NCBI GenBank assembly: GCA_040380225.1
Contig: JBEIJN010000005.1
Coordinates: 4,563 to 68,562 of the forward strand
Direction: 5' to 3'
DNA from: Verrucomicrobiia bacterium
GTDB lineage: Bacteria > Verrucomicrobiota > Verrucomicrobiia > Chthoniobacterales > UBA6821
Length of the DNA stretch: 64,000 nt
The position numbers and the translations under genes were made by a program. This document shows positions 3,362-43,972 of this stretch, piece after piece. The notes beneath the pieces were generated by a model. The model made no database searches and had not been told where the DNA came from. It saw only the letters and a program-made list of their open reading frames with translations. The first letter of the stretch is position 1; each line of letters opens with the position of its first letter.

Positions 3362-4894
3362 CTAGTGCCTGAAGTGGCGCTTGCCGGTGAAGACCATGGC
3401 GACCCCGCGCTCGTTGGCTGCGGCGATCACCTCGGGATCACGGACGGATCCGCCGGGCTGGATGGCGGCGGTGGCACCCGCCTCGGCGGCGGCGATGAGA
3501 CCGTCAGGGAAGGGGAAGAAGGCATCGGAGCAGACGACGCTTCCCTTGAGGGAGAGTCCGGCCTCGCCCGCCTTCCAGACGGCGATGCGGGAGGAGTCGA
3601 CGCGCGACATCTGGCCGGCACCGATGCCGAGCGTGCGGTCCTTGCCGGCGTAGACGATGGCGTTGCTCTTGACGTGCTTAACGACCTTCCAGCCAAATTC
3701 CATCGCCTCGATCTCGTCCTTGGTGGGCGGGCGGGCGGAGACGACATGGTGCTCGATGTTTCCAGCCGTCTCGTTCGAGGCTGCGTCGGCATCCTGGACA
3801 AGCATGCCTCCGATGACGGAGCGGATGTCGCGGTCGTTGGAGGGGATCTCCTGAAAAAGGCGCATGAGGCGGAGGTTCTTCTTTTTCTGGAGCAGGGCGC
3901 GGGCATCGGCCGTGAACTCGGGGGCGATGATTACCTCGCTGAAGATTTCCGAGATGGCGCGCGCCAGAGCCTCGTCGACCGGGCGGTTCGCGATGATGAT
4001 CCCGCCGAACGGCGCGGAGCGATCGGTGGCGAAGGCCTTCTCCCACGCCTCGGTGAGGTTCTCGTCGCTGCCGACGCCGCACGGATTGGTGTGCTTGAGG
4101 ATGGCGACGGTCGGCTTGGCAAACTCGCTGATCAGGCGGGTGGCCGCGGTGATATCGAGGATGTTGTTGAAGGAGAGTTCCTTGCCGTGAAGCTTCTCGA
4201 AATAGTCGAAAAAGCCGCCATAGAGCTCGGCCTCCTGGTGGGGGTTCTCGCCGTAACGGAGGCGGCCGGCCAGCGGGAACTCGAGCGAGAGGGTCTCGCC
4301 GGGGGCGCTCTCGTTGTCGAGGTAGGAGCTGATGGCGCGGTCGTAGGCGCCGGTGGTGGCGAAGGCCTTCACCGCAAGGCGGGCGCGCAGCTCCGGGGTG
4401 GTCTCGCCGTTCCCCGATTTCATGGCGTCAAGGACGCGCGGGTAGTCGGCGGGGTCGACGACGACCGTGACGGAGCGGTGGTTCTTGGAGCCGCTGCGGA
4501 TCATCGAGGGGCCCCCGATGTCGATCTGCTCGATGGCCTCCTCGAGCGTCACGCCCTTCTTCGCGACGGTCTCCTCGAAGGGATAGAGATTCACGCAGAC
4601 GAGATCGATCGGAAGGATCCCGTGCTCGGCGGCCTGGGACTGGTGCTTGGGGTCGTCGCGGAGGAAGAGGAGTCCGCCGTGGACCTTGGGGATGAGTGTC
4701 TTCACGCGGCCGTCCATCATCTCGGGGAATCCGGTGTAGTCGGAGATCTCCCTGACGGGAATGCCTGCGGCCGCGATCGCCTTGGCGGTGCCGCCTGTGG
4801 AGAGAAGCTCCACGCCCTGCTCGTGCAGGCCGCGGGCGAAGTCGATGAGTCCGGTCTTGTCGGAGACGGAGAGGAGTGCGCGTTGGATTTTCAT
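3362..4894 (-). CDS. purH: bifunctional AICAR transformylase / IMP cyclohydrolase
   Basis: 510 aa. [26 protein letters not shown]-like, full-length PurH pattern ending in KRHFRH. Confidence 0.95.
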
Positions 4895-8628: not shown

Positions 8629-8847
8629 TGGACGGAAGCACTGGGGTGCGTCAAGAGACCAAGCTATCGGAGCGGGGTGTTGGATCGCGCAGAGGCGCAG
8701 AGAACGCAGAGAATGATACCACCCTTCACTCACAGAAGGATCCTTACTTTCCCAAGAACTCCGCACTCTGCGGGAGATTTCTCATGAAACAAAGTCTCCC
8801 CTCCCTGCATTGACACCTTTCCGGCCAACGGCTTTCATCCTCAGCGC

Positions 8848-10212: not shown

Positions 10213-10401
10213 TGCTCTCCATCCAATCTCTCTGCGCCTAAAGCCTAGCAAAATTTAAACCCGAACTCTGAAGATTAGAGAGATGCGTTGGTGTTAAGAT
10301 GGTGGTCGATAAGAGTTGCGGAGATCCGTTCTAACTTCAGTTTTTTCTGCCCCCCCCCAACGGGCTCGTTCCGTTGGAGCGCGATTTCATTGGTGCGCTA
10401 G

Positions 10402-11635
10402 GGAAACGCTGATTTAATCGGGAAGCGTTTCAATGCGATGCTATGCAGGATACTTGTTTAGGGTTAGACTGGTTGGCATGAACAAGCAGCTGAGTTTTTC
10501 TGCGAGCGAGTATGCTGGGAAGAAGAAGGCGACCAGAAGGGAGCGCTTCCTTGGGGAGATGGAGAAGGTGGTGCCTTGGGGGAAGCTTATCGCCCTGATT
10601 GAGCCATGTTATCCCAAGGGTGAGCGAGGGAGGCCTCCGGTGGGGATTGAGAGGATGCTGAGGATCTACTTCCTATCGCAGTGGTACGGGTTGGCAGACG
10701 AAGCCCTTGAGGATGCCATCTACGACAGTCAGGCGATGAGGAACTTTATCGGTGTGGATCTGGGAGGGGAAAGCGTGCCTGATGCGACGACATTGCTGAA
10801 GTTCCGACATCTCTTGGAAGAGAATGAGCTGACGCGGGCGATCTTTGAGGAGATCGGGAGGCATCTCAAGGCCAAGCAACTGATGATGAAGGAGGGAACC
10901 ATCGTGGATGCGACCATCATCAGCGCCCCCTCCTCAACCAAGAACGCGGAGGGCAGGAGGGATCCTCAGATGCATCAGACCCGCAAAGGCAACCAGTCGT
11001 ACTTCGGGATGAAGGCCCAAATTGGAGCGGATGCGAATTCGGGGTTGGTTCACAGTCTTGAGGGCACCCCCGCCAATGTGAGTGACGTCAGCCAGACCAA
11101 GCATCTGCTGCATGGAGAGGAGAAGAGTGTTCACGCCGATGCGGGATACACCGGGGTTGAAAAGAGGGAGGAATTTGAGGGCAGCAAGATCGAGTGGATG
11201 GTGCCTCAGAAGAAAGGACGTCTCAAAGCAATGGCCGATGGGTTGAAGAAGGATCTCTTACGGGAATGGGAGCGTCGGAAGGCGCAGGTGCGAGCCCGGG
11301 TGGAGCATCCCTTCCACATCGTCAAAAACCTCTTCGGCTACCGGAAAGTCCGATACCGGGGACTGAGGAAAAATCTCGCCCAACTTCACAGCCTCTTCGC
11401 CCTGGCCAATCTGGTCATTGCCGGACGCATGCTCCGCAGGGCCCAGATGGCATGAAATCACCAGAAACACCCTCCTTCGCAGCCAATGGATCACTTCATC
11501 GGCACCCTGCCACCGCTAAAAAATGCCCCTCCCGGAGCCACACGCGTTGCCAGATGATCAAATTTATCTCTCCAATCCCTTCCTCCACTCCAAAATCAGC
11601 CAAACTTTGAAAAAGGCGATTTAATCAGCGCTTCC
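10402..11635 (+). mobile_element. IS5-family (IS5 group) insertion sequence, complete, 1234 bp
   Basis: Imperfect terminal IRs: ggaaacgctgatttaatcg on the left, cgatttaatcagcgcttcc on the right. Flanked by a 4-bp direct repeat CTAG (10398-10401 and 11636-11639). Single DDE transposase gene. Confidence 0.85.
10478..11455 (+). CDS. IS5-family DDE transposase
   Basis: MNKQLSFSASEYAGKKKATRRERFL..., VDATIISAPSS, HADAGYTG and VEHPFHIVKNLFGYRKVRYRGLRKN are typical of IS5 transposases. Confidence 0.9.
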   Translation: MNKQLSFSASEYAGKKKATRRERFLGEMEKVVPWGKLIALIEPCYPKGERGRPPVGIERMLRIYFLSQWYGLADEALEDAIYDSQAMRNFIGVDLGGESVPDATTLLKFRHLLEENELTRAIFEEIGRHLKAKQLMMKEGTIVDATIISAPSSTKNAEGRRDPQMHQTRKGNQSYFGMKAQIGADANSGLVHSLEGTPANVSDVSQTKHLLHGEEKSVHADAGYTGVEKREEFEGSKIEWMVPQKKGRLKAMADGLKKDLLREWERRKAQVRARVEHPFHIVKNLFGYRKVRYRGLRKNLAQLHSLFALANLVIAGRMLRRAQMA

Positions 11636-11730
11636 CTAGAGGTGGCAATCGGATTCTCACCGATTCGGGAGCTTTCACTCCCGACCCAATTGGATGCCAC
11701 CCCGCAGCCGCCCACCATCAGGCGGGAGGA

Positions 11731-12947: not shown

Positions 12948-14960
<2,013 letters not shown>

Positions 14961-15013
14961 AACGGAAAAGATGAGGGATGAAGGATGAAAGCTGAAACCG
15001 GGAGGACAGAGAG

Positions 15014-15167
15014 TAATCAGGAAATCAGGAAATCAGGAAGACGTGATGGGAGGGAAATCTGCCCTCCAATGGTGAAAAGGCTTGGCAGGGAAGCGGCAAT
15101 TACTCTCCACCGATCCCAAATGACCCATGGCTCCTCCGCCTTTTCCTGATTTCCTGATTTCCTGATA
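15014..15167. repeat. foldback element with stuttered arms (word AATCAGGA)
   Basis: A 24-bp perfect inverted repeat: (atcaggaa)x3 at 15016-15039 pairs with (ttcctgat)x3 at 15143-15166. The spacer is 103 nt. Confidence 0.8.
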
Positions 15168-15173
15168 AAAATT

Positions 15174-15836
15174 TCAGGATTCTTTCCCGATCGTTTGCCC
15201 AAATTCGCGAATGATCCGCGGGTAGAGTTCGTGCTCGGCGATCTGGATGCGGGCGTGGAGTGACTCCGCCGTGTCGCCCGGGAGGACTGGAACACGGCTC
15301 TGGCCGAGGATCGCGCCGGTATCGACCCCGGCATCGACGAGGTGAACGGTGCAGCCTGCCTCGGGTACTCCCGCCTCGATCGCCTGACGCCATGCTTCCA
15401 GTCCCCGGAAAGATGGCAGCAGAGAGGGATGGATGTTCAGGATCCGTCCCGGAAAGGCGCGAAGCAGCGGTTCCTTGATGACGCGCATGAATCCTGCGAG
15501 GACGACGAAATCGACCCTCGCCTCGCGGAGCAACCGGACAATTTCCTCCTCGGCTTCCGGGGCCATCTTCGTGCGGAAGGGACCGGGTGCCACGAATTGA
15601 CCGGGGATCCCGAATTCCTTCGCAAGAGGAAGGATCCCGGCGGTCTCGATATCCGAGAGAACGATCACCGGTTCACATCCGAGGATCCCGCCGCGCCATG
15701 CCTCGGCCAAGGCACGGAAGTTGGATCCCTTCCCGGAACCAAGAACGCCGAATCGGGGCCCCGAGTTGCCGGGTGAAATGGAAAACCCCGGCCTGGAAGG
15801 ACCGGGGTTATTCATCCCTTGCAGGGAAAGACTCAA
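15174..15836 (-). CDS. purN: phosphoribosylglycinamide formyltransferase
   Basis: VLGSGKGSNFRAL, NIHPSLLP and TVHLVD-GVDTG motifs. The N-terminal ~25 aa are uncertain; an alternative Met lies at 15815. Confidence 0.85.
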   Translation of the reverse strand: MSLSLQGMNNPGPSRPGFSISPGNSGPRFGVLGSGKGSNFRALAEAWRGGILGCEPVIVLSDIETAGILPLAKEFGIPGQFVAPGPFRTKMAPEAEEEIVRLLREARVDFVVLAGFMRVIKEPLLRAFPGRILNIHPSLLPSFRGLEAWRQAIEAGVPEAGCTVHLVDAGVDTGAILGQSRVPVLPGDTAESLHARIQIAEHELYPRIIREFGQTIGKES

Positions 15837-16576: not shown

Positions 16577-16660
16577 GCTCGGGTGGTGAAATGGCAGACA
16601 CGTACGTTTGAGGGGCGTATGCCGAAAGGCATGGGGGTTCAAGTCCCCCCCCGAGCACCA
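16577..16660 (+). tRNA. tRNA-Leu (anticodon GAG)
   Basis: Hand-folded. Acceptor gctcggg/cccgagc, anticodon stem tacgt/gcgta with loop ttGAGgg, long variable arm tgccgaaaggcat, T arm ggggg-ttcaagt-ccccc, encoded ACCA. Confidence 0.9.
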
Positions 16661-16792: not shown

Positions 16793-16826
16793 CCTAATAG
16801 TCTAACAGACTACAGCCTAATAGCCT
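16793..16826. repeat. family-T array of YCTAAYAG-type 8-mers
   Basis: cctaatagtctaacagactacagcctaatagcct matches the reverse complement of 62620..62653 at 32 of 34 positions (hand count). It abuts the stop codon of the exonuclease gene. Confidence 0.75.
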
Positions 16827-18487: not shown

Positions 18488-18550
18488 GGCAATAATCGAG
18501 TCGAACAAGATCCATGCACCCGGCCCGGAATGCAATATGCAAGTGGAGGA

Positions 18551-18684
18551 GACGAGGGTCGAGGGTCGAGCGCAAAAACCCCAAAGACAACCGCCACCAA
18601 ACAGAAACACTCGGTTTTGCCCTCCTGATCCCTTTGTCAGCGCTTCAGAAGCCCTCGACAGTCGCCCCTCGACTCTCGACTCGG
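18551..18684. repeat. foldback element with stuttered arms (word CGAGGGT/CTCGAC)
   Basis: Left arm gacgagggtcgagggtcgagcg, right arm gccctcgacagtcgcccctcgactctcgactcgg. The right arm is nearly identical to that of 23292..23389. Confidence 0.65.
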
Positions 18685-18729
18685 CTGTTTCAGCTTTCCG
18701 ATTTCAGCTTTTCAGCTTTTTCTACCCCT

Positions 18730-19218
18730 ATGCCTTCCTTTGACATTGTTTCCGAAATCGAGCGGATGGAGATCGAGAATGCGGTCAACCAAGCCGTGAA
18801 GGAGCTGGCGACCCGCTTCGACTTCAAGGGGAGCAGCGCCAAGATCGAGCTGACCAAGCCGGAGCTGATCACCCTCACGGCCGAGGATGCCAACAAACTC
18901 AAGGGGGTACGCGAGATCATGGTCGGCAAGCTGGCCAAGAGGGGCGTCGACCTCCGCAACGTGGAGCAGAAGGATCCCTCCGTCTCCTCGATCGGCAACA
19001 CCCGTCAGGAGTTCGTCATCACCCAGGGACTCGAGGGCACCAAGGCCAAGGAGATCACGACGGCCATCAAGGCCGAAAAGTTCAAAGTGCAGGCCTCCCT
19101 TCAGGACCGTCAGGTGCGCGTGACGGGAACCAAGCGTGACGAACTTCAGGAAGTCATCGCCTTCCTTCGTGCGAAAGACTTCGGGGTGTCGCTCAGCTTC
19201 AAGAACTTCAGGGACTAA
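18730..19218 (+). CDS. yajQ: YajQ-family nucleotide (cyclic-di-GMP)-binding protein
   Basis: MPSFDIVSEIERMEIENAVNQAVKELATRFDFKGS..., about 162 aa, the internal start of ORF 18514..19218. Confidence 0.85.
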   Translation: MPSFDIVSEIERMEIENAVNQAVKELATRFDFKGSSAKIELTKPELITLTAEDANKLKGVREIMVGKLAKRGVDLRNVEQKDPSVSSIGNTRQEFVITQGLEGTKAKEITTAIKAEKFKVQASLQDRQVRVTGTKRDELQEVIAFLRAKDFGVSLSFKNFRD

Positions 19219-20186: not shown

Positions 20187-20230
20187 CCCCTAACAGCCTA
20201 ACAGCCTAACAGCCTTCAGCCTAAACCCCT
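20187..20230. repeat. family-T array: cccc-(taacagcc)x3-ttcagcctaaacccct
   Basis: Read directly. The same element with a single unit occurs at 63903..63930. Confidence 0.8.
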
Positions 20231-21986: not shown

Positions 21987-22694
21987 ATGATCCTGCCTCC
22001 GCTTCTCGCGGCGGCGATGTGCGCCCACTCCTCGGGTGGCCAGCAATCCTTCGCCGTGGCGCTCCCGGAACTGGAGGGGCCGGTGACGATGGAGATCTTT
22101 TCCTCCTCGGGCGAGCGGGTGCGGCTTCTCCACAGGGACGCCGGGGTCGACACGATCCCGGCGGGACTCAACGGCCTGATCATGTCGTGGGATGGGAAGG
22201 ATGATCAGGGGCGCGACGTGCCCGCCGGCACCTACAGGGCACGGGGTCTGGTGCACGGCCCGCTCAGTGTGACGGCACTGCCGGTCGGGAATTCGCTCCC
22301 GATCGCCGCTGCATGCCGGGAGGAGGCCGACATGTTCCCTTTGCGGCCACCTTTTTCCAAAAACAGGATCACGATCCGCGCGGCAAAGGATGAGTTGCTG
22401 GAAAGCCGGCCGTTGCTCTCGATCGAGGCGGGCATCGAAGGCGATGCCTGCGTGATCCGCGCCGATGGGCTGCCGCTTCTCTCCATTCCCATGGAGTCCA
22501 CCGGGAACGTCTCGCCGGGCATCACCCACGGAGCCGTTCCGGGATCTGCCCTGCTCACGATGGAGGGACCGAAGGGTTCCTCCACCCACACGATCACGGG
22601 CCTGGATCGTCTGGTTCCGCTGAATGCCGGCGCGCTGGAAATTCCAGCCGATGCTTTTCATCCGCTGCCGGGTGCAGGAGAATCCGCGCCGTGA
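21987..22694 (+). CDS. secreted protein with FlgD-Ig-like domain
   Basis: Signal-like MILPPLLAAAMCAHS. The segment MEIFSSSGERVRLL...WDGKDDQGRDVPAGTYRARG is typical of the FlgD Ig-like fold. The start is uncertain. Confidence 0.5.
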   Translation: MILPPLLAAAMCAHSSGGQQSFAVALPELEGPVTMEIFSSSGERVRLLHRDAGVDTIPAGLNGLIMSWDGKDDQGRDVPAGTYRARGLVHGPLSVTALPVGNSLPIAAACREEADMFPLRPPFSKNRITIRAAKDELLESRPLLSIEAGIEGDACVIRADGLPLLSIPMESTGNVSPGITHGAVPGSALLTMEGPKGSSTHTITGLDRLVPLNAGALEIPADAFHPLPGAGESAP

Positions 22695-23287
22695 TTCTCC
22701 CAGGCGCTCCCAAGCATGCCCCGCGACATGTCGTTGCCGGCATCGCCATGGCCTGTGCCCTGCTGCTCGCCTTGCCCTGCCACGCGGAGCAGCCTTCCGC
22801 GCAGGGAATCAAAGTTCCCTACGCGCTGGCTTGGGGTGACAGCATCGACAAGGTCCGCGAGATGCTCAACGCGGTGAAGGCTCGCGAAACCGCCCTCTCC
22901 CAGAAATCCCCCGGCAAGTTCGTGCTCGAGGCGGAGGGGCTCGGCGTGGGGGATCAACTGCTCAAGAAATCCCTCTTCACCTTCCGGGATGGTTCGCTCG
23001 TCGAGGTGGAGCTCCAATACGGCGATCCCTCCTGGGACGGGGAGAAGACGTTGGATTTCTTCGATCGAACCAGACGCCGCATCGGCGAGCGGTACGGCAC
23101 CGGATCGCTGATCGTCAACAAGGTCAGGGAGCGCCCCTCGGGGGAGAAAGTGCCGCAGGACGTGACCTACACGCTGATCATTTACCAATGGACCCAGCCC
23201 ACGGCATCGCTGGAACTCGACTACTACGGCGTGGAGGGGGTCGAGCAGGCCCTGCGTCTGGTAAGCCTGCATTATAAAGCGCCGTAG
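22691..23287 (+). CDS. hypothetical secreted protein
   Basis: 198 aa with signal peptide IAMACALLLALPCHA. No family recognised. Confidence 0.5.
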   Translation: MILPGAPKHAPRHVVAGIAMACALLLALPCHAEQPSAQGIKVPYALAWGDSIDKVREMLNAVKARETALSQKSPGKFVLEAEGLGVGDQLLKKSLFTFRDGSLVEVELQYGDPSWDGEKTLDFFDRTRRRIGERYGTGSLIVNKVRERPSGEKVPQDVTYTLIIYQWTQPTASLELDYYGVEGVEQALRLVSLHYKAP

Positions 23288-23291
23288 GCCA

Positions 23292-23389
23292 CGTCGAGAG
23301 TCGACAGACGAGCGTCGAGAGCTTTTTGTGAGTATAGGCCTCGGGCTTTTGCCTTTTCTGAAGCCCTCGACCCTCGTCTCTCGACTCGG
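23292..23389. repeat. foldback element with stuttered arms (word GTCGAGAG/CTCGAC)
   Basis: cgtcgagagtcgacagacgagcgtcgagagc pairs with gccctcgaccctcgtctctcgactcgg, forming a ~26-bp imperfect stem. It sits between convergent genes. Confidence 0.7.
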
Positions 23390-23393
23390 GCCT

Positions 23394-25403
23394 CTACAGC
23401 ACTTCCACCGGGCACTCTGGCAAAGCCTTGAGGAAGGCCTTGCCGTAGGGCCGCGAAAGAATGCGGCTGTCTAGGATCACGATGGAGCCTCGATCCTTGG
23501 AGCTTCGGATGAGGCGGCCCACACCCTGGCGCAGTTTCAGGATCGCCTCGGGCAATGAATAAGTCTGAAAGGGATCGCCTCCCGCGGACTCGATCTCCTC
23601 CAACTTCGCCTCGGTGAGGGGATGGTCGGGGGTCACGAACGGCAGGCGCGTGATGATGACGCTGGAGAGAGCCTCGCCAGGCAAGTCGACCCCGGTCCAG
23701 AAGCTGTCGGTCCCGAACAATACGCTCTCCCCGTCCTCGCGAAAGCTTTCCAGCATGCGCGAACGCGATAGTCCCCCGCCCTGCACGATGAGGTTCCAAC
23801 CCTTCTCCTCGAAGAAGCCCGTCATCCTCGCCGCCACCGACTGCATGGTGCGGTGGCTGGTAAAGAGGACAAAGGCCCGTGCGCGACTCTCCTCCGTGAA
23901 GTGGCTAATCCATTTCGCAAGCGCCTCCTCGTAAGCCGAATCCTTCGGCTCAGGCATCTTGCGGACGAGACGGATCTTCATCTGCCGTGCGTAATCGAAG
24001 GGGGAGCCGAGCTGCAGCGAGGGGACCTCAAGCGCACCCACCCGGCCACGGAAATAATCGAGCTCCGCAGAGCCGACCGAGAGGGTCGCGCTGGTCATGA
24101 CGGCGGTGCTGCCTTCGCCGAAGAGAAGGCGTCCCAGCAGCGGCGCGACCGCGACCGGTGCCGCATGGAGACTGGTCCAGGTGGAAGCCTTGCCGCTCCG
24201 CTCGACCCAGTAGACGTGATCCGGTTCGCTCTGGGAGAGAAAATCGGAAAGCCCCGCTCGCGCCGTGCGGAGGCGGGAGGCGACATCGTTGAGCTCACCC
24301 TGCAGTCCCTCCTCCTCGGCTTTTGCCGCTGCGGTTCCGGCCGATTCGGCAAGGCTCGCCAATCCCTCCGCGAGCGGACTCTCCGCCACGGCCTCCGCGA
24401 GATCCGCCGACTGGTCGGCGCGGATGCGGCTTTCACGCCCCTGACGGAAGGTGCAGGCGCCGGCCAGCTTGTCGAAGAAGCGGTCGACCTCCGGAATGAG
24501 ATCCGATGCCGCGGAAATCCCCCCGTTCTGCCGCGCCTGCTGGAGCAGCCCCTTGCGGGTGCGTGGGTTGTAGAGCCGCTGGATGGACTGGCGCAGGCTG
24601 TATTGGGAGAGGTTGAAGCCGAGGTGACGGGAAGCGACCTGCTCGACGGTGTGGGCCTCGTCAAAGATCACGAAATCATCGGGGAAAAGGTAGCCGAGCC
24701 CCTCCTCCTCGGGATCTCCCAGCAGGGTGAAGAAGAGCGTGTGATTGAGAACCAGAATCTGGGCCGTCTGGGCGCGTCGCCGGGCGGACTGGTAGAAGCA
24801 GCCCGAGTCGCGGCCGCAGGTCTTCGGCGTGCAGAGGTGCTGCTCGCTGCAGACCTGCATCCAGAGTTCGCGCGGTGGCTCGAAGGGGAGATCGCTCAGC
24901 GAGCCGTCCGTGGTGGTTGCGGCCCACTCCCGGATCCTCTCCAGTTCCGGCCGCTCCTCGGCGGTGAAGAGGTCGGCCCCGTGTCGGTGCGCGCGGGCGA
25001 GACGCGTGGGGCAGACATAATTCTGGCGCCCCTTCAGGAGGACCGCCTCGAAGTCCTCTCCGGTCAGCCCCTTCACCAAGGGGATGTCCTTGTAGAGGAG
25101 CTGCTCCTGAAGATTGATCGTGTGCGTGCTGACGAGAGCCTTTCGTCCCGTCCGCTTGGCATGAAGCACGGCGGGGAGCAGGTAGGCCAGCGACTTGCCG
25201 ACACCGGTTCCCGCCTCCACGACCAGATGGGAGCGGCCGGCTAATGCTCCGGCCACCGCCCCGGCCATGCGCTGCTGCTCGGGGCGCCACTCGAATCCGC
25301 GGATCGCGGCAAGGCTTCCCTTCGGGCCGAAGAGCGCGGCCACTTCCGCCGCGAAGCCGGCGCTGCCGCCCCCGGCGGGAAACTGCTCATTGATGGAAAT
25401 CAT
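23394..25403 (-). CDS. dinG: ATP-dependent DNA helicase, DinG/Rad3-like
   Basis: 669 aa. EAGTGVGKSLAYLLP Walker A, DEAH box (IFDEAHT), C-terminal helicase motifs. Confidence 0.85.
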   Translation of the reverse strand: MISINEQFPAGGGSAGFAAEVAALFGPKGSLAAIRGFEWRPEQQRMAGAVAGALAGRSHLVVEAGTGVGKSLAYLLPAVLHAKRTGRKALVSTHTINLQEQLLYKDIPLVKGLTGEDFEAVLLKGRQNYVCPTRLARAHRHGADLFTAEERPELERIREWAATTTDGSLSDLPFEPPRELWMQVCSEQHLCTPKTCGRDSGCFYQSARRRAQTAQILVLNHTLFFTLLGDPEEEGLGYLFPDDFVIFDEAHTVEQVASRHLGFNLSQYSLRQSIQRLYNPRTRKGLLQQARQNGGISAASDLIPEVDRFFDKLAGACTFRQGRESRIRADQSADLAEAVAESPLAEGLASLAESAGTAAAKAEEEGLQGELNDVASRLRTARAGLSDFLSQSEPDHVYWVERSGKASTWTSLHAAPVAVAPLLGRLLFGEGSTAVMTSATLSVGSAELDYFRGRVGALEVPSLQLGSPFDYARQMKIRLVRKMPEPKDSAYEEALAKWISHFTEESRARAFVLFTSHRTMQSVAARMTGFFEEKGWNLIVQGGGLSRSRMLESFREDGESVLFGTDSFWTGVDLPGEALSSVIITRLPFVTPDHPLTEAKLEEIESAGGDPFQTYSLPEAILKLRQGVGRLIRSSKDRGSIVILDSRILSRPYGKAFLKALPECPVEVL

Positions 25404-27284: not shown

Positions 27285-28313
27285 ATGGTGAAGGGGAGCC
27301 TGCCGCTCTTCCTGGCCCCGATGGCCGGGGTGACCAACTCGATTTTCCGGACCATTTGCAAGGAAAAGGGGGCGGATGTCCTGACCACCGAGTTCGTCTC
27401 GGCAGACGGAATCATGCACCGGAATGCAAGGACCCGCGGTTATCTGGAATTCACCGAGGCGGAACGACCCATGGGCGTCCAGCTCTTCGGGGCTGACCCG
27501 GAACGCCTGTCAGAGGCAGCGAAGCAGGTGCGCGACTGGGTGCATCCCGACTTCATCGACATCAACTTCGGCTGCCCGGCCAACAAGGTGGTCTGCAGGA
27601 ACGGGGGATCATCGCTCCTGCGCGACTGCCCGCTGCTGGAGCGTGTCGCGGAGGCCGTGGTGCGGGCCTGCGATCCGCTTCCTGTGACCGCCAAGATCCG
27701 CATCGGCTGGGATGAGCGCTCCGTCAACGCCGTCACCACGGCCCGCCTGCTCGAGGGAGCAGGCATCCGCCGAATCGCCGTCCACGGTCGCACGCGCGCC
27801 CAAGGCTACTCGGGATACGCCGACTGGGATGTGATCGCCGCCGTGGCCGCCGCCGTGCGAGTCCCCGTCATCGGCAACGGCGACATCACCGACGCCGCCA
27901 CGGCGCTCAGGCGTCTCGGGAGCGGGGTCTCCGGCCTCATGATCGGCCGTGCCGCCATGGCGAATCCCTGGATCTTCACCGAGGTGAAACATGCCTTCGA
28001 GGAAAAACCTTTCGTCGCGCCGACCCTCTCGGAACGCTGGAACCTTGTCCTCCGCCACTGCCGCGAAGAGGTGGGCGTGCGCGGGGAGACACACGGCATG
28101 CACGGAATGCGCGGGCGTCTGATGGCCTACACGCGCGGCATGCCGGGCGCCCGGCCGCTGCGCGCCTCCCTCTCCAAGGTCGCCACCCTCACGCAGCTTG
28201 AGGAGATCATCGGTGACCACCTCGATTCACTCGGTTCACTCGACCCACTCGACACCGTTCATGGGGGAGAGCCCGAAGAAGCCTCCTTCGCTTCCATCGA
28301 AAAACGATCCTGA
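27285..28313 (+). CDS. dusB: tRNA-dihydrouridine synthase
   Basis: LAPMAGVTNSIFR, INFGCPANKV and HGRTRAQGYSG motifs. Confidence 0.9.
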   Translation: MVKGSLPLFLAPMAGVTNSIFRTICKEKGADVLTTEFVSADGIMHRNARTRGYLEFTEAERPMGVQLFGADPERLSEAAKQVRDWVHPDFIDINFGCPANKVVCRNGGSSLLRDCPLLERVAEAVVRACDPLPVTAKIRIGWDERSVNAVTTARLLEGAGIRRIAVHGRTRAQGYSGYADWDVIAAVAAAVRVPVIGNGDITDAATALRRLGSGVSGLMIGRAAMANPWIFTEVKHAFEEKPFVAPTLSERWNLVLRHCREEVGVRGETHGMHGMRGRLMAYTRGMPGARPLRASLSKVATLTQLEEIIGDHLDSLGSLDPLDTVHGGEPEEASFASIEKRS

Positions 28314-31701: not shown

Positions 31702-32556
31702 ATGGATTCCCTCCTCACCCTCCCCATCGGCGACTTCCGCGCCGTCGAGTTGACCCTTCGGCTGACCGTGGCGCTGGTGGCCATGACGGCTCTCCTTCTC
31801 CTCTTCTCCATCAGCTGCACGGCGGGCCGCCTCCGTCTGCCGCTCATCCTCGCCTCGGTCGCCCTCCTCGGAGCGGCCTGGTTTGAATCGGGCGTCTGGC
31901 TCGGCTGGAAGCAGGGTTTCGAGTTGGCCGGCACCTCCTACTGCGTCACCGGTCAGCTCCTCTCCGGCGAGGACCGCATCCTGGCCTGGTCCCTCGGGGT
32001 CCCCGCGATTCTCTTCTGCTTCGGACTGCTTCAGTTCCCCCGGGGAGAGGGGCATCGCTCTGCATGGACGCGGTTCTGCGCGGCGATCCTGCTTCTCGCA
32101 CTCCTCGCGCCGTTCTCGAGCCTGCTGGCGCTGGCATTGCTGGGCTGGGTGCTCTGGTTCCTCTGCATCAAGGCTCCTTCCGTCGCCAAGCGTTCCTCCG
32201 TTTCCCTGCGGCGGGAATGCCTGATCGCATCGGGTAGCATCGCGCTCCCGTTCCTTATCACCCTACTGGGCGGCTGGCATCTGCTGCCGCTGGGAAAGTC
32301 TGCCGAGGGGATTCTTGTCCGCGGTGAAATCATCCGCTCCCTTTGCGACATCCTCTCCTTAGTCGTGCCCGCCGTGATCCTGCTGACGGCAGTTCTCAGG
32401 CTGGCTGCGGATGTTTCGGAAAAATCCCCCGAACGCTCATCTGCACCCCCAACCGCATCCCACATCACGCCCCCAATCCCACAAATCAAGGAAAAGAAAT
32501 CCAAGCCACGCGATCCCGCATCGTCGGATCTCCAATCCGGCCTGTTCGGAAGCTAG
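31702..32556 (+). CDS. hypothetical polytopic membrane protein (6-7 TM helices)
   Basis: 284 aa with multiple hydrophobic helices and a Pro/Ser-rich tail. The stop TAG lies inside the left CTAG target duplicate of the MITE. Confidence 0.5.
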   Translation: MDSLLTLPIGDFRAVELTLRLTVALVAMTALLLLFSISCTAGRLRLPLILASVALLGAAWFESGVWLGWKQGFELAGTSYCVTGQLLSGEDRILAWSLGVPAILFCFGLLQFPRGEGHRSAWTRFCAAILLLALLAPFSSLLALALLGWVLWFLCIKAPSVAKRSSVSLRRECLIASGSIALPFLITLLGGWHLLPLGKSAEGILVRGEIIRSLCDILSLVVPAVILLTAVLRLAADVSEKSPERSSAPPTASHITPPIPQIKEKKSKPRDPASSDLQSGLFGS

Positions 32557-32863
32557 GGAACCGCTGATTAAATCGCATAGAGGCCGTTGCGGAAAGAATG
32601 GGCCGCGGGCAAGGCGGCTTCGCGGGCGCATCCCCGCAGTGGGCTGCCGTAACGGATGCGAAGCAACGGCCGGGCAAGCAAACCGCGAAGCCAACACAGC
32701 CCCCGGCCTGTTATCTCCGCAACCCGGAGGGCTGAAGCCATTTGTCGATTTTTGCAGCGTTGCTCGCTCGGGCGAGACCGCTGCGGGTATCGCCCAGCAC
32801 TCACGCCTTCAAAAATCAGCAACTGCCCTTCAGCGGCCATCATGGGATTTAATCAGCGGTTCC
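32557..32863. mobile_element. 307-bp MITE, a non-autonomous derivative of the IS5-family element
   Basis: Termini ggaaccgctgattaaatcg and gatttaatcagcggttcc match the IS IRs at 10402 and 11635. CTAG target duplication at 32553-56 and 32864-67. No transposase ORF. Confidence 0.75.
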
Positions 32864-33946
32864 CTAGAGCGTCGGGTAATCCGTATATCCCTTCTCTCCG
32901 GGTGAATAGAAGGTCGATTCGTCCGCTGCATTGAGGGGTGACTTCTGCCTGAAGCGCTGGGGCAGATCGGGATTCGCGATGAAAGGCACGCCGAATGCAA
33001 TCGCATCGGCCCACCCCTCTGCGAGGGCGGCATTGCCCGACTCGAGGGTGAATCCCCCGGCAGAGACAATCTTCCCGTTCCAAGCAGAGCGGAGCTCCTT
33101 CGGGCCGATTCCCTCCGCAGCTCCATGGGCTATGTCCTGGGCGGTCACCTGCGTGATGTGGGCATAGGCGAGATCGAAGCGGTTGAGCTCGCGGAGCACG
33201 TGGCCGAAGGTCTCGAAAGGATTGTCGTCCCGCATGTCATTGAAGATACCGGCGGGGGAGAAACGGATCCCTACCCGGTCAGCACCCCAGACTCCGACCA
33301 CGGCCTCGGTGACCTCGATGGTCAGGCGCGACCGGTTGGCGACCGATCCACCGTATTGGTCGGAGCGCTTGTTTGTCCCAGTGCGCAGGAACTGATCGAG
33401 CAAATACCCGTTGGCATTGTGGATCTCCACACCGTCGAATCCGGCCTCCTTGGCGAGCTTCGCGACGTGGACATACTCGGCGATGATGCCAGGAATCTCG
33501 GCGGTCTCGAGGGCGCGGGGAGTTACATATTCCTCCATCGCTGTCCCAGTGAAGACCTGCCCCTTGGGCTTGATGGCCGAGGGAGCGACGGGGAGTGCAC
33601 CTTCCTTCTGATAAGAGGGATGAGAGATGCGGCCGACATGCCAGAGTTGCAGGTAGATGTGCCCACCCTTGGCATGGACGGCCTCCGTGACTTTCTTCCA
33701 ACCCGCGACCTGTGCCTCAGTGTGAATGCCGGGCGTGCTGGGATATCCGTAACCGGAGGGAGAAACGGAGGTCGCCTCCGAAATGATCAGTCCTGCCGAG
33801 GCCCGCTGGGCGTAATATTCCGAGTTCAGCTCATTCGGCACATGACCCTCGGAAGCCCGGCAACGCGTGAGCGGCGCCATGAAGATCCGGTTTGGCAAGG
33901 CCAGCGGTCCGAGCTGGAGGGGAGTGAAGAGGTCGGAGCGGGACAT
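32864..33946 (-). CDS. NADH:flavin oxidoreductase, Old Yellow Enzyme family (NemA-like)
   Basis: 360 aa. LFTPLQLG, NRIFMAPLTR, QLWHVGR and GFDGVEIHNANGYL motifs. Confidence 0.9.
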   Translation of the reverse strand: MSRSDLFTPLQLGPLALPNRIFMAPLTRCRASEGHVPNELNSEYYAQRASAGLIISEATSVSPSGYGYPSTPGIHTEAQVAGWKKVTEAVHAKGGHIYLQLWHVGRISHPSYQKEGALPVAPSAIKPKGQVFTGTAMEEYVTPRALETAEIPGIIAEYVHVAKLAKEAGFDGVEIHNANGYLLDQFLRTGTNKRSDQYGGSVANRSRLTIEVTEAVVGVWGADRVGIRFSPAGIFNDMRDDNPFETFGHVLRELNRFDLAYAHITQVTAQDIAHGAAEGIGPKELRSAWNGKIVSAGGFTLESGNAALAEGWADAIAFGVPFIANPDLPQRFRQKSPLNAADESTFYSPGEKGYTDYPTL

Positions 33947-34142
33947 GGGAAGGGGTTATGGTTAAAGGCTGTTGGACTATTGGGCTGTTAGGAAAAAGCA
34001 GGGGGAAATGTGGTGCTCTGGCGTGCCTCACCTAAAAACGCGAAGATCGTGTGGAAGAATCCGTATCTTCTCCGCTTCTTTCTGACTTCCTGAGTTCCAG
34101 ATTAAAATCTCTCCGCGCCTCTGCGGCTCCGCGGGGAAATCC

Positions 34143-34506: not shown

Positions 34507-36399
34507 TCAGGCTTTCTGCGGGGGATCAATCAGGATCTCGGCTTTGAAAATCTCGAGGGCCTTTCGGATGAGCGGATCGCTTTTGAACTCCTCCAGCTCT
34601 GCGGCGCTGATCGCGGGCGTTGCTGGTTCCGGGGCCGTCTGCTTGGGGGCAGCTTCGGTGGGTTTGCCCGCCGTGCGGTTTGTTTGCGACACCTCCTTGG
34701 TGGATGGAGCGGGAGCGGCGACCGGTTCCGGTTCCGGAGGAGCGGGCGGCTCCTCTCCGGTGAAGCGGTATTCGAAGGTGATCTTCACGCCGAGTGCCGC
34801 CGTGAGCTGCTCCTCGATTTTTTTCACCGCCTGCGGCCAGAAAAGCGTCTGCGTCTGCTGCTCCAGCGACGGAGGGAACTCCACCAGGATGGCATTGCCG
34901 ATCCGCTCGATGAAGCGCCCATCCTCAACCCATCCGAATTTCAGCGGCGAGTCGGCAGCCAGTTTCATCGCCACGTCCTGCCAGGGGTCGGAGGAACTGG
35001 GAGTTGGGGGCTGGGAACCAAGGCTCTGGGAAGAGCCGCGGACGACTGACGTAGTCAGCTCCGCAGGGGCTGCACCGCTTCCCGGGAGGGAAGTGCCGTC
35101 ATCTGGGGATTCAACCGGTGTGGGTTTCGATTCAGCCTTGGGCGGTTCGATCCGGATGGGATCAACGGGAAGAGGGGCGGCTTTGGGAACTGGCGCTGGT
35201 GAGGGAGCCGGTGCGGCGACCGGTGCCGTGGGACGGGTAGCCGGTGGGCGCGCCACAGGACGATCCGGGAGGGGTGCGCCGCCGCGAAGCGCGGTGAGCG
35301 TGTCGAGCACGTCGCTGAGGCTTGCCTCCTCGAGGAGATGCACTCCCTTGATGAGGGCGACATCGAGCTGGAGCTTCTTGTCGGTGGCCCAGCGGAGGCG
35401 GCCTTCCGCCTCGCCGAAGTGATCCAGCAGGACCAGGAGCTTCTCCTGGGAGATCGCCTCCCCGAGCCTCGCTTCCTCGGTCGCTTCCGCAGACGGGTGG
35501 ACCTTGCCGATCAGGATATCGCGGAGCAATCCAACGAGATCGCCAAGCAGTCGAGCCAGATCCTTGCCGGCCTCGGCCTGACTCTTCACGACGGCCAGTG
35601 TGGCGGGCGTGTCGCGGGCGACGAGGGCTCCTGCAAGCTCCAGGACGGTCTCGCGCGGCGTGAATCCGAAGACGTTGTGGACATCGGCGGCGCCGATCGT
35701 CGTGCCGCAGAAGGCGACGACCTGATCGAGCATCGACTCGGCGTCACGCATCGCCCCGTCAGCCCCGCGCGCGATCGTGGCGGCGGCAGCGGGATCTAGT
35801 GCGATCTTCTCGTTCTTGGCGATGTGCAGCAGATGGTCGGCGATGAGTTCCGGCGTCAGTCGCCTCAGGTCGAAGCGCTGGCATCGGCTGAGGATGGTGG
35901 CCGGCACCTTCTGCGCCTCGGTCGTGGCGAAGAGGAACTTCACGTGCTCCGGCGGCTCTTCCAGCGTCTTGAGCAACGCGTTGAAGGCCGCGGTCGAGAG
36001 CATGTGCACCTCGTCGATGAGGTAGACCTTGTAGGGTCCGCGGGCCGGGGCGTAGGCGGCGTTCTCTCGAAGCGTGCGGATGCTATCGACGCTGTTGTTG
36101 CTCGCCCCGTCGATCTCCATCACGTCGAGGCTGCGTCCCTCGGCGATCTCGACGCAGGCATCGCAGGTGCCGCAGGGATTGTCGGTCGGCTCGCCCTTGT
36201 TGGAGAGACAGTTGAGGGCCTTGGCCAGGATGCGGGCCGAGGAGGTCTTCCCCACGCCGCGGGGACCGACGAAGAGGTAGGCCTGCGCGAGCCGCTTGCC
36301 GGTGATCGCGTTCTGGAGCGTCCGGGTGATGTGTTCCTGGCCCACGACCTCCTCGAAGCGTTGGGGACGGTATTTGCGGGCGAAGACTCGGTAGCTCAC
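34507..36399 (-). CDS. dnaX: DNA polymerase III subunit tau (gamma/tau)
   Basis: 630 aa. FVGPRGVGKTS Walker A, zinc module CGTCDAC, IDEVHMLS, then a Pro/Ala-rich linker and a tau C-terminal region. Confidence 0.9.
   Translation of the reverse strand: MSYRVFARKYRPQRFEEVVGQEHITRTLQNAITGKRLAQAYLFVGPRGVGKTSSARILAKALNCLSNKGEPTDNPCGTCDACVEIAEGRSLDVMEIDGASNNSVDSIRTLRENAAYAPARGPYKVYLIDEVHMLSTAAFNALLKTLEEPPEHVKFLFATTEAQKVPATILSRCQRFDLRRLTPELIADHLLHIAKNEKIALDPAAAATIARGADGAMRDAESMLDQVVAFCGTTIGAADVHNVFGFTPRETVLELAGALVARDTPATLAVVKSQAEAGKDLARLLGDLVGLLRDILIGKVHPSAEATEEARLGEAISQEKLLVLLDHFGEAEGRLRWATDKKLQLDVALIKGVHLLEEASLSDVLDTLTALRGGAPLPDRPVARPPATRPTAPVAAPAPSPAPVPKAAPLPVDPIRIEPPKAESKPTPVESPDDGTSLPGSGAAPAELTTSVVRGSSQSLGSQPPTPSSSDPWQDVAMKLAADSPLKFGWVEDGRFIERIGNAILVEFPPSLEQQTQTLFWPQAVKKIEEQLTAALGVKITFEYRFTGEEPPAPPEPEPVAAPAPSTKEVSQTNRTAGKPTEAAPKQTAPEPATPAISAAELEEFKSDPLIRKALEIFKAEILIDPPQKA
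35016..35112. repeat. family-L multi-hairpin repeat copy embedded in-frame in dnaX (codons ~430-462)
   Basis: 35016-35040 is identical over 25 nt to 59156-59180. The next ~70 nt align with the family-L core, and all four hairpins are retained. Confidence 0.65.
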
Positions 36400-38975: not shown

Positions 38976-39065
38976 CCGCAGAGGCGCAGAGGCGCGGAGT
39001 TTTTAGACAAAACAACTGCAGGATTTCTTTTTCTTCATCTCTGGGACTCTGCGACTCTGCGCGAG
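38976..39065. repeat. foldback element with stuttered arms (word CGCAGAGG)
   Basis: ccgcagaggcgcagaggcgcggag pairs with ctctgggactctgcgactctgcgcgag. It sits in the thyA-folA spacer. Confidence 0.65.
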
Positions 39066-39090: not shown

Positions 39091-39672
39091 ATGATCAAAG
39101 CGATTGTGGCTATGGCCGAGAACCGGGTCATTGGGAATGCCGGCACCATCCCGTGGCATCTCCCCGAGGATTTCAAATTCTTCAAGGCGACAACCATGGG
39201 CCATGCGATCCTTATGGGCCGGAAGACCTACGATTCGATCGGCAAGCCGCTCCCCGGTCGGGAAAACATTGTTCTCTCCCGCACGATGCCCGAGACCCAT
39301 GGTGTGACCGTTATCCGCTCGATCGATGAACTCAAGGAACCCGAATTCACGCAAGGGGGCCGCGACTTGTTCGTGATCGGCGGTGAAGAGATCTACCGAC
39401 TCCTCCTCCCCACGGTTCAGGAACTCTACGTCACCAAAGTCCCCAGAACCATCGACGGCGACACCCGCTTCCCCGAGTTCGAATCACAATTTGATGCGGG
39501 AACAAAGGTTCTGGAGAACAACGACTTTTCTGTTTGGAGGTATTGTAGATTTTCCAGCGTGATTTCCGATCCGTATTTAGAATCTCGTGCGTCTCGCGCT
39601 ACTGGAAAGGGCTGGGATCTGTTGGATCAAGTTCCGCCCGCGAAGCCTGATCTCGGCGATGAGCTTGACTGA
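39091..39672 (+). CDS. folA: dihydrofolate reductase with an atypical 43-residue C-terminal extension
   Basis: MIKAIVAMAENRVIGNAGTIPWHLPEDFKFFKATTMGHAILMGRKTYDSIG... is a canonical DHFR through ...FSVWRYC. An unrelated tail follows, ending at the TGA at 39670-72. Confidence 0.85.
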   Translation: MIKAIVAMAENRVIGNAGTIPWHLPEDFKFFKATTMGHAILMGRKTYDSIGKPLPGRENIVLSRTMPETHGVTVIRSIDELKEPEFTQGGRDLFVIGGEEIYRLLLPTVQELYVTKVPRTIDGDTRFPEFESQFDAGTKVLENNDFSVWRYCRFSSVISDPYLESRASRATGKGWDLLDQVPPAKPDLGDELD

Positions 39673-39678: not shown

Positions 39679-39828
39679 GTTCAGAAACTCTACGTCACCA
39701 AGGTCCCCAGAACCATCGACGGCGACACCCACTTTCCCGAGTTCGAATCACAATTTGATGCTGCAACGAAGGTGTTGGAGACGAACGACTTCACTGTGTG
39801 GAGGTATTGCAACACGGCTCACCATTAG
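39679..39828 (+). pseudogene. displaced duplicate of the folA 3' end (44 conserved codons plus a native-like short tail and TAG)
   Basis: 117 of 132 nt are identical (hand count) to 39415..39546, in the same reading frame as folA, 264 nt downstream. It ends ...WRYCNTAHH*. Confidence 0.6.
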
Positions 39829-40636: not shown

Positions 40637-40819
40637 CAGGGGAAAGGATGAATTATGAATGTTGAATTATGAAAGAACGGAATACATGGGTTCACTCGTT
40701 CCCAACGGATACGAAGCAATGGCTGGACCTCCAAATGATGAGACGCGGTGTGGGTCTGGTGCCGTCTCGGTTTTTCCCTCTCTGCGCCTCTGCGTCTCTG
40801 CGCGATATTTTTCCCATCG

Positions 40820-43699: not shown

Positions 43700-43737
43700 A
43701 CAAAAAAATTGGGGGAAGCGTTATTAGCGCTTCCCCC
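43700..43737 (-). terminator. Rho-independent terminator of the histone-like gene
   Basis: On the minus strand: 10-bp stem gggggaagcg/cgcttccccc with a 7-nt loop, followed by aattttttt. Confidence 0.7.
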
Positions 43738-43780: not shown

Positions 43781-43972
43781 TTACTTCTTCTTGGCGACGG
43801 CCTTCTTGACGGCTTTCTTTGCAGGAGCCTTCTTGACAGCCTTCTTCACGGTCTTCTTGACGGCCTTCTTAACAGCCTTCTTGACGACCTTCTTCACGGC
43901 CTTCTTGGCCGGAGCCTTCTTGACGGCTTTCTTTGCAGGAGCCTTCTTTGCAGCTTTTTTCTTAACGGGCAT
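43781..43972 (-). CDS. histone H1-like Lys/Ala-rich nucleoid protein
   Basis: 63 aa made of KKA(V/P)KKA repeats: MPVKKKAAKKAPAKKAVKKAPAKKAVKK... Confidence 0.7.
   Translation of the reverse strand: MPVKKKAAKKAPAKKAVKKAPAKKAVKKVVKKAVKKAVKKTVKKAVKKAPAKKAVKKAVAKKK

Follow-up and report, generated by a model that had tools for sequence, protein, structure and literature searches.

Paired arrays of short repeated words between the genes of an uncultured Chthoniobacterales bacterium

What kind of element is a spacer that opens with a stuttered word of 7-9 nt and closes with the reverse complement of that word, stuttered again? The question is raised by a 64,000-nt stretch of the genome of a Verrucomicrobiia bacterium (Chthoniobacterales, UBA6821; contig JBEIJN010000005.1, positions 4,563 to 68,562; hereafter the window), in which such a fold-back lies between a purN-like gene and uvrD (site 1) and three further spacers follow the same plan (sites 2, 3 and 4). 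Spacers in this lineage of uncultured Spartobacteria/Chthoniobacterales are largely tandem arrays of 7-9-nt words. Our answer, offered tentatively and with less than even confidence, is that the fold-backs are the paired form of these gene-boundary simple repeats, which are typical of the lineage and built by slippage, and that their arms make stem-loops similar to those of repetitive extragenic palindromic (REP) sequences, with a putative function.

Stuttered fold-backs at four spacers

At site 1, (AATCAGGA)x3.1 at 15015-15039 and (TTTCCTGA)x3.1 at 15142-15166 (Tandem Repeats Finder, TRF; 100% matches) make up the 24-bp perfect inverted repeat of (atcaggaa)x3 that the first-pass annotation had described. 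The 24-nt arms are 100% complementary and lie 103 nt apart, and the element occupies most of a 213-nt spacer whose flanking genes are both on the minus strand:

12948-14960, minus strand: uvrD, UvrD/PcrA helicase gene, with a TTG start at 14960, 55 nt from the nearer arm
14970-14999, minus strand: extra stutters, (CTTCATC)x3 and GGTTTCAGCT in the sense direction, lying between the uvrD start and site 1, with strain-variable copy number
15015-15039, minus strand: site 1 3' arm, sense (UUCCUGAU)x3, pyrimidine-rich and G-poor, 55 nt 5' of the uvrD TTG
15040-15141, minus strand: site 1 core, ~103 nt, 95% identity among strains
15142-15166, minus strand: site 1 5' arm, sense (AUCAGGAA)x3, purine-rich, beginning 8 nt past the purN-like stop
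15160-15179, no strand assigned: small hairpin TCCTGA-N8-TCAGGA, linking the purN stop region with the first word of the arm
15174-15836, minus strand: purN-like formyltransferase gene (Formyl_trans_N), stop codon 15174-15176, 8 nt from the arm

The sense-strand RNA of site 1 folds into a 24-bp stem closing a branched loop (-72 kcal/mol, z = -4.3), and the core holds a small conserved hairpin, GGAGGG-N7-CCCUCC. The hairpin at 15160-15179 may have been a local seed for the site 1 word. A known structured RNA family was rejected for the core: covariance models from Rfam gave 0 matches to the window at the gathering threshold, and the sole match at E<=1, a generic long hairpin scoring 27.8 bits where the gathering score is 135, was a spurious hit to a plant microRNA precursor. 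A coding core was rejected as well, since its 31-codon open reading frame (ORF), with a Shine-Dalgarno (SD)-like GGAGGAG, loses its ATG in two related strains (L081/L089). The cores contain no tRNA or tmRNA; the window's only tRNA is a tRNA-Leu at 16577-16660.

The plan had been proposed to recur in at least four spacers, and sites 2, 3 and 4 proved to be real too:

18551-18570, no strand assigned: site 2 left arm, (CGAGGGT)x2.6, which reads CTCGACC 5' of the minus-strand gene for 3-deoxy-D-arabino-heptulosonate 7-phosphate (DAHP) synthase (start 18487)
18652-18684, no strand assigned: site 2 right arm, (CTCGACN)x3, 5' of yajQ (ATG 18731)
18702-18720, no strand assigned: (TTTCAGCT)x2.4 array after the site 2 right arm
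23293-23321, no strand assigned: site 3 left arm, (GTCGAGA)x4, beginning 5 nt past the stop of the plus-strand gene 22691-23287
23364-23389, no strand assigned: site 3 right arm, (CCCTCGA)x3, which ends 4 nt short of the stop of a dinG-like gene (23394-25403, minus strand)
38976-38999, plus strand: site 4 5' arm, (CGCAGAGG)x3, beginning 24 nt past the thyA stop (38952)
39039-39063, plus strand: site 4 3' arm, (CTCTGCGA)x3, ending 27 nt before the folA ATG (39091)

As had been claimed, the fold-backs occur in co-directional, divergent and convergent spacers: the DAHP-synthase and yajQ genes around site 2 diverge, and those around site 3 converge, with both stop codons 4-5 nt away. Sites 2 and 3 have the GTCGAG family in common together with ~30 nt of adjoining sequence, including GAAGCCCTCGAC...CTCGACTCGG in their right arms. 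A T5 run comes right after the 5' (purine) arm of sites 3 and 4 (23322-23328, GAGCTTTTTG; 39000-39004, GGAGTTTTTAG), so the statement that no T-run follows these elements stands for the 3' arms and fails for those two 5' arms. The GTCGAC-containing arm of site 3 can form a small hairpin of its own before its T5 run.

How far do such arrays exceed chance? Called by TRF at periods of 6-11 and set against 100 block-wise dinucleotide shuffles, the window has 37 arrays where the shuffles have 14.2 ± 4.1, and 26 with a score >=36 where the shuffles have 3.0 (maximum 7). Short-period arrays are thereby ~9-fold over the shuffles, and the similar numbers that would have spoken for random microsatellites were not reached in the 64 kb. 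Arrays with an inverted partner <=250 nt away number 4, against a shuffle mean of 0.05 (maximum 2), and under a cross-site null, in which each arm is set against the neighbourhoods of other arrays, the rate is 0.9% per array and the expectation 0.34. Six of the 24 spacers of 60-450 nt have a significant inverted repeat when compared with their own shuffles: the four stutter fold-backs, one miniature inverted-repeat transposable element (MITE) derived from an insertion sequence (IS), and one plain hairpin. Folding z-scores are -4.8/-5.9 for site 3 and -5.0 for site 4. The paired design is real and it is a subset, with inverted pairs taking in 8 of the 37 arrays and the majority unpaired. Spacers with one family at both ends are more frequent than the vocabulary would predict, and variants can be common to their two arms.

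At least 15 unrelated word families occur in the 64 kb. Arrays of period 7, 8, 10 and 11, units that are not a multiple of 3, sit in spacers or at gene ends, and family motifs are 20-50x denser in intergenic DNA, an enrichment that the first-pass annotation had proposed to check. A weak fifth pair and several unpaired arrays reuse the same words:

8687-8776, no strand assigned: a fifth, weak pair between divergent genes, with (GCGCAGAG)x3 (8687-8713) and CTCCGCACTCTGCGGGAG (8759-8776) as its arms
20189-20230, minus strand: family A array, TAG-GGGTTTAGGCTGAAG(GCTGTTAG)x3, directly after the stop of an epimerase gene
40780-40803, minus strand: unpaired array of the site 4 word, reading (GCGCAGAG)x3, just past the stop of the minus-strand gene 40820-42229
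63298-63314, plus strand: unpaired array of the site 1 word, (AATCAGGA)x2.1, 82 nt past a stop codon, with flanks unrelated to site 1

Family A recurs at 16793-16826, 33960-33990, 62619-62680 and 63905-63930. Among the loci compared with the window (given as L numbers), AATCAGGA is found, besides site 1 and 63298, at non-orthologous places in L001 and L083/L086, and GCGCAGAG occurs at 8687, 38977/39039, 40780 and 34111 as well as in L081, L083 and L196. An irregular string of 26-34 nt, the AGGCTGTT family, stands at 16793, 20189, 33960, 62619 and 63905 and also in L081/L083/L001, and ATTTTTCATTCTTCATTT is common to window position 42784 and an arm in L082. Copies of one word have unrelated flanks and cores, both within and between genomes. 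Rather than a different word at each site, as was first thought, a small vocabulary is reused at unrelated loci and genomes without common flanks or cores. The remark that the words recur singly elsewhere was right as to recurrence; the copies at 63298 (x2.1), 8687 (x3) and 40780 (x3) are short arrays, and the one noted at 34117 is there in degenerate form only.

Orientation at gene starts and stops

The arrays obey an orientation rule: stop codons are followed by a purine-rich copy, and start codons without an SD have a pyrimidine-rich, G-poor copy ahead of them. Because of this rule each such spacer runs from purine-rich to pyrimidine-rich on either strand. The first-pass annotation missed the rule, as it missed the wholesale spacer replacement and the kinship with described simple-repeat classes that are taken up below. 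On the sense strand, purines make up 41% of the 50 nt before starts versus 56% of the 50 nt after stops (Mann-Whitney p = 3e-5). Over all loci, 28 of 33 polarised pairs run purine-then-pyrimidine and 5 the reverse, and all four window sites fit. Pyrimidine-strand arrays lie 0-65 nt before starts, in leaders with a G fraction of 0.14-0.2. When one automatic gene caller is used throughout, the window and its strains show the polarity, other Verrucomicrobiota show it weakly, and the Chthoniobacter-like, planctomycete and proteobacterial/actinobacterial loci do not show it. Among the metagenome contigs listed, a pyrimidine array points toward a same-sense start 10-80 nt off in at least ~16 and toward a stop in at least ~5. 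At the divergent pairs L008, L009 and L118, an array stands beside the start codons of both genes.

In the 40 nt upstream of ~30 window gene starts, leaders are C/T-rich, many of them ending in CCTCC-like strings that resemble an anti-SD, and no SD motif was seen upstream of these starts; G drops to 0.14 in the final 10 nt. Sigma-70 promoters are at chance level in the window. Verrucomicrobiales have been reported to be without SD sequences globally, a survey whose coverage did not extend to Chthoniobacterales (PMC10798248), and the leaders seen here suggest that the Chthoniobacterales lineage also starts translation without SD pairing.

Could such arrays be multivalent binding sites? Under this proposal a single-stranded-RNA-binding protein (S1, cold-shock or CsrA-like) or small RNAs would bind them, word families would mark co-regulated leaders, and the purine arrays would be decoys in cis or trans. 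The placement of pyrimidine arrays 0-65 nt before SD-less starts fits, as do the use of one word by both genes of the divergent pairs L008, L009 and L118 and the conservation of word families across genomes. Several purine words (ATCAGGAA, GAAGGAT, CTAAGGAAGC) contain GGA, the core of CsrA sites. A like idea was put forward for TAACTGA repeats (PMC4679880). However, the 64 kb hold at least 15 unrelated families, some without a common motif, and the word changes between strains, with three families directly 5' of yajQ, which is awkward for word-specific regulation of housekeeping genes; nor has a candidate factor come to light. We regard binding arrays as distinctly unlikely.

Are the fold-backs, then, terminators? 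That they are not simply terminators had been argued from their contexts, and the count agrees: terminator-like sites in the window number 14 against 14.3 expected. Canonical intrinsic terminators were rejected: a consensus scan was at chance, the loops measure 40-105 nt, and the 3' arms have no T-run within 2 nt. A looser version holds that the elements are only terminators, either U-tract-independent or, between convergent genes, bidirectional, with long stems grown by slippage. Sites 1, 3 and 4 lie downstream of a stop codon, begin 5-24 nt past it and fold stably, site 3 is placed between convergent stops, and canonical terminators are not enriched in the window, all of which agree with the looser version. 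A pyrimidine-rich 3' arm would also, on nucleic-acid thermodynamics, leave a weak RNA-DNA hybrid. Yet no U-run follows the 3' arm, the 40-105-nt loops are as awkward here, site 2 and the L008, L009 and L118 pairs are in divergent spacers, and many unpaired arrays follow the same orientation rule. This explanation seems very unlikely to us. A three-frame stop cassette was also rejected: 13 of 24 words contain a stop codon, versus 13.6 expected from letter-shuffled units.

Slippage and replacement among strains

Ten close-strain contigs from lake metagenomes and metagenome-assembled genomes (MAGs), L081-L090, were retrieved through an exact match to ribosomal protein L27; their genes are 91-100% identical to the window at the DNA level. 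The window's DAHP synthase shares 98% identity with its counterpart in a freshwater 'Spartobacteria bacterium' MAG and ~70% with those of Chthoniobacter-like MAGs. The stop-proximal arm of site 1 has three copies of its word in six strains and two in three (L081/L088/L089), and the CTTCATC and TTTCAGC stutters near site 1 vary in copy number as well. Downstream of the epimerase gene, (GGCTGTTA)x3 in the window corresponds to a single copy in L083/L086, and (TTTCAGG)x3 in L001 to one copy in L081. Arrays lengthen and shorten in place from one strain to another, an indication of replication slippage, in keeping with the slippage-prone process that had been suggested at first.

Besides such changes in number, whole spacers have been exchanged. 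Between purN and uvrD, L082/L087 have an unrelated spacer of 85 nt, (GAAAAAT)n - core - (ATTTTTC)n; the change sets in nine codons ahead of the purN stop, and the flanking genes are 95-96% identical. Greater divergence of these strains was rejected as the reason, since the flanking genes of L082 are no less similar than those of strains that keep the element. At site 3, L081 has a 246-nt replacement spacer bounded by AGGCTGAAGACTGTTAGG ... CCTAACAGTCTTCAGCCT, another inverted word pair. The paired design thus returns after spacer replacement, with another word. Between the DAHP-synthase gene and yajQ, at least four spacer versions occur that cannot be aligned with one another; three word families stand directly 5' of the yajQ ATG, and the left arm of site 2 is found in the window and L081 and missing from L001/L083/L086. 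Conservation of position, which had been put forward as a check, is accordingly mixed: site 1 is kept in many strains and replaced in L082/L087, and site 3 is replaced in L081. For site 4, exact-protein look-ups with folA and thyA gave only one short same-strain contig.

This hypervariability is confined to stutter-bearing spacers. The stutter-free spacers rplU|tRNA, tpr|flgD-like and dinG|lptF are 90-100% conserved in every strain, on which ground a general hypervariability of all spacers was rejected. In L083/L084 (6627-7520, orthologous to window ~18488-18730) a gene of 297 aa, with no Pfam hit on record, is inserted in the DAHP-yajQ spacer, and the yajQ-to-epimerase interval carries differing small ORFs in different strains; stutter-bearing spacers are on this account also sites of gene gain and loss. 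The last purN codons in L082 come from the (GAAAAAT)n array, and in dusB a stutter of 9-nt period (CTCGATTCA-like, 28226-28253) encodes SLGSLDPLD, so that stutters can be translated at gene ends. The dusB stutter had been noted as coding for this peptide, correctly, and as forming the C-terminus; it lies ~20 codons before the stop. In the L085 assembly a run of N falls exactly at the site 3 spacer (~4420-4520), which suggests that such repeats break or confuse short-read assemblies.

Presence/absence-like differences between strains, inverted arms that enclose a core and arm words that recur across loci and genomes would also be expected of non-autonomous mobile elements (a MITE, a REPIN, that is, a doublet of REP sequences, or a degenerate fold-back transposon) whose terminal arrays are transposase-binding words. 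The window does contain mobile DNA:

10398-11639, no strand assigned: complete IS5-family insertion sequence with imperfect terminal inverted repeats CTAGGGAAACGCTGATTTAATCG (10398-10420) and CGATTTAATCAGCGCTTCCCTAG (11617-11639)
10433-11455, no strand assigned: IS5-type transposase gene (DDE_Tnp_1 + DUF772), the window's only transposase; the ends, CTAGGGAA..TTAATCG, are unlike the stutter arms
32553-32867, no strand assigned: 315-bp MITE in a convergent spacer, with perfect 22-nt ends, CTAGGGAACCGCTGATTAAATC and its reverse complement, that correspond to those of the IS5-family element

However, this sole transposase is of IS5 type, with unrelated ends that do not stutter, and its MITE is easily recognised. 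The fold-backs combine the same arms with unrelated cores and flanks; a target duplication was looked for in the flanks of site 1 and none was found; the L082 allele of site 1 is a different spacer and not an empty site, with the last 9 purN codons replaced too; and arrays grow in situ from one local copy. No gene for a REP-associated tyrosine transposase (RAYT) was found among the scanned ORFs of the window. A transposon, MITE or REPIN was accordingly rejected, there being no shared core, target duplication or empty site and, in the 64 kb, no matching transposase, and the degenerate fold-back transposon of the first-pass annotation goes with them; we consider a mobile origin highly improbable.

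How widely does the plan extend? In a metagenome scan with the query ATCAGGAAATCAGGAA, most matches were chance 16-mers in unrelated contigs of lower G+C, and only the paired, high-G+C subset is informative. Among the matches listed, 58 are in contigs with G+C >=0.53, and at least ~20 show (NNCAGGRA)n followed 4-60 nt on by (TYCCTGNN)n. Fold-backs of NNCAGGAA thus occur in at least ~20 high-GC metagenome contigs, each with a different core and often with a start codon 10-50 nt downstream. L126/L140 have outer and inner words that agree in register. In L081 the ortholog of the weak pair at 8687-8776 is strong, with two 3-copy arms (15317/15428) that both carry the variant GCGCTGAG, which the window ortholog does not have. 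The same plan is built from other words in L009, a subdivision-3 verrucomicrobial MAG (AGTTTCA/AAACTTG), in L008 (CGATTTA/TCGTAAA), in L158, L179 and L086, and in L023, a Burkholderiales MAG (GTGAAGG/CCTTCAC). No such fold-backs were seen among the loci examined of the Chthoniobacter-like relatives L002-L005.

Two further patterns were noted in these contigs. L008 (3985-4025) and L009 (1735-1765), which are different verrucomicrobial-type genomes, have the motif CGTCTCCTACA in common just inside the start-proximal fold-back array, within an inner inverted repeat GGAGAYGACG...CGTCRTCTCC; this motif could represent a promoter or mobile-core element common to the two. In the metagenome contigs L117 (79-542) and L191 (780-1243), ATCAGGAAATCAGGAAGGCAGGAA occurs three times in direct orientation as part of a ~180-270-nt higher-order tandem repeat, and these contigs consist almost wholly of short stutters.

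Are the fold-backs simply what mutation leaves behind? An unusually high rate of short tandem duplication would fill weakly constrained spacers with stutters, and intramolecular template switching at quasi-palindromes would occasionally place an inverted copy of an array on the opposite side; the pairing would be functionless and the fold-backs fast-turnover debris. Copy-number polymorphism and in-place expansion fit this explanation, as does the coincidence of replaced spacers with stutter-bearing ones, and the arm variant shared across a divergent spacer fits templated copying. It would also be at ease with uncompensated arm changes, with folding that shows no strand asymmetry, with pairs in divergent spacers, and with pairing in just 4 of the 24 spacers. 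What it leaves unexplained is why orientation should follow starts and stops, why identical irregular strings of words turn up at unrelated loci, why NNCAGGAA arrays stand beside start codons in unrelated genomes, and why the paired design came back after two independent spacer replacements. We take it to be a serious possibility, though on the unlikely side.

Known repeat classes and a possible function

The first-pass annotation knew of no described class with this design. That was correct for the orientation rule and the pairing and too strong for the arrays themselves, which have kin among long simple sequence repeats (LSSRs), short tandemly repeated repetitive (STRR) sequences, start-proximal heptamers and REP-like hairpins. 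STRR heptamers of cyanobacteria were reportedly described by Mazel et al. in 1990. LSSRs have units of 5-11 nt (Mrazek et al. 2007, as summarised in PMC4679880). By the tests applied, the window's arrays belong to the LSSR/STRR kind: they are tandem, with units in the 5-11-nt range, intergenic, strain-variable and drawn from reused families. More closely, the likeness lies in 7-9-nt tandem units above chance, almost all intergenic, with strain-variable copy number and limited reused families. They differ in the purine/pyrimidine rule at gene ends, in frequent inverted pairing across the spacer, and in phylum and words; paired fold-backs were not found in the LSSR and STRR descriptions as summarised.

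TAACTGA direct repeats stand just before start codons in Beggiatoaceae, Cyanobacteria and Bacteroidetes (MacGregor 2015, PMC4679880). These too are heptamer-scale tandem repeats a few to tens of nucleotides before starts, in leaders without canonical ribosome-binding sites, at housekeeping genes and with the same word across distant genomes. There, however, one word dominates and inverted pairs are essentially nil (one 'indirect repeat' in 170; PMC4679880), whereas here there are many word families, complementary copies past stops and frequent inverted pairs. REP sequences, bacterial interspersed mosaic elements (BIMEs) and REPINs (Bertels & Rainey 2011, PMC3116915; Di Nocera et al. 2013, PMC3733652) are likewise extragenic, abundant, strain-variable and near gene ends, and form inverted doublets with long hairpins; for both, a role as a 3' stem-loop of the mRNA is plausible. 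The arms seen here are direct tandem words and not palindromes, have no GTAG/CGTC head, and are periodic with changing copy number, and the spacer between them is not conserved among copies.

Two other classes show partial resemblance. The MITE at 32553-32867 is likewise intergenic, its short non-coding core enclosed by inverted ends; these 22-nt ends are non-periodic and identical to those of the resident IS, whereas the stutter fold-backs have no matching IS. In Neisseria, dRS3 inverted repeats flank variable RS segments, and pairs of DNA uptake sequences (DUS) are used as terminators. There, as here, short inverted conserved sequences bracket variable intergenic segments in which strain content differs; dRS3 and DUS are each one fixed sequence and not a tandem array of words, and they are linked to phage integration or DNA uptake, neither of which is in evidence here. 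A search of the full-text literature on Verrucomicrobia/Chthoniobacter repeats and LSSRs found no description of the orientation rule, of inverted pairing across a whole spacer, or of strain replacement that keeps the design.

What might paired gene-boundary repeats do? The arms may be kept alike by inverted templated copying, through a template switch in replication, by selection for pairing, or by both. Where a transcript runs through a spacer between co-directional or convergent genes, its two arrays would pair, and a stem of 16-25 bp would close off the spacer. Such a stem could serve as a REP-like 3' stem-loop of the upstream message, acting as an exonuclease barrier, as a terminator without a U-run, or as an RNase III target. 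It could also mask the unstructured, G-poor leader of the next gene, leaving that leader exposed only in transcripts begun inside the core. In divergent spacers each arm would be the leader of its own gene, and the fold-back a by-product.

Several observations weigh against this account of boundary stems, every functional step of which is one that we infer. Strong pairs in divergent spacers abut both start codons (L008, L009, L118), where one RNA would hardly hold both arms. Site 2 folds weakly (z -1.0/-1.9), and over 18 comparisons sense strands fold no better than antisense strands (mean difference -1.1 kcal/mol, p=0.21). Point changes in the 3' arm of site 1 (L081/L089, L083/L084, L088) are uncompensated in the other arm, as are the unequal copy numbers of the two arms. 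A 103-nt loop is unusual in a terminator or stabiliser stem. Finally, the excess of pairing is modest once a limited vocabulary and the orientation rule are granted: ~1.1 same-family pairs would be expected and 4 are seen, with a rough p of ~0.03 by our own estimate from the window alone.

A broader hypothesis, which we judge unlikely, is that the arrays form a hitherto undescribed cis-acting boundary code in SD-less Verrucomicrobiota and some other high-GC bacteria. G-poor pyrimidine leaders would be landing sites for ribosomes or a protein, purine anti-leaders behind the gene before would pair with them, in cis as fold-backs or in trans where genes have a word family in common, neighbouring genes would be insulated or coupled, and slippage in either arm would keep retuning the arrangement. 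If gene boundaries in a widespread and poorly studied freshwater and soil phylum are indeed organised by slippage-prone, strictly oriented word repeats, this would be relevant to the termination, protection and translation of messages in bacteria without SD sequences or recognisable intrinsic terminators. The spacers would then be the fastest-evolving, strain-distinguishing part of genomes that are 95% identical, and could serve as typing markers. For annotation and assembly the arrays are a warning, as they enter gene ends, replace C-terminal codons and break contigs. Current repeat classes offer no explanation for the reuse of words in unrelated genomes.

Other repeats of the window lie outside these families. 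Just downstream of folA, which is long (193 aa, with an extended C-terminus), a 131-nt direct duplication of its 3' part is 89% identical (39415-39545 / 39679-39809). A minus-strand gene at 43796-43953 contains a coding repeat of 12-nt period, AAGAAGGCCGTC in the sense direction, in a Lys/Ala-rich, histone-H1-like protein; after it comes a plain G+C-rich hairpin at 43711-43737 (GGGGGAAGCG-TTATTA-GCGCTTCCCCC), the sole classical-looking one among the 24 spacers. A dispersed, non-stuttered repeat of 57 nt (AAGAGCCGCGTAAGACTACGACGAAGTCGTAGCCCAAAGGG...), 96% identical and with an internal palindrome, is present at 50142-50198 / 59171-59227, and an adjoining 25-nt piece (35016-35040 / 59156-59180) gives a third copy inside or near a gene.

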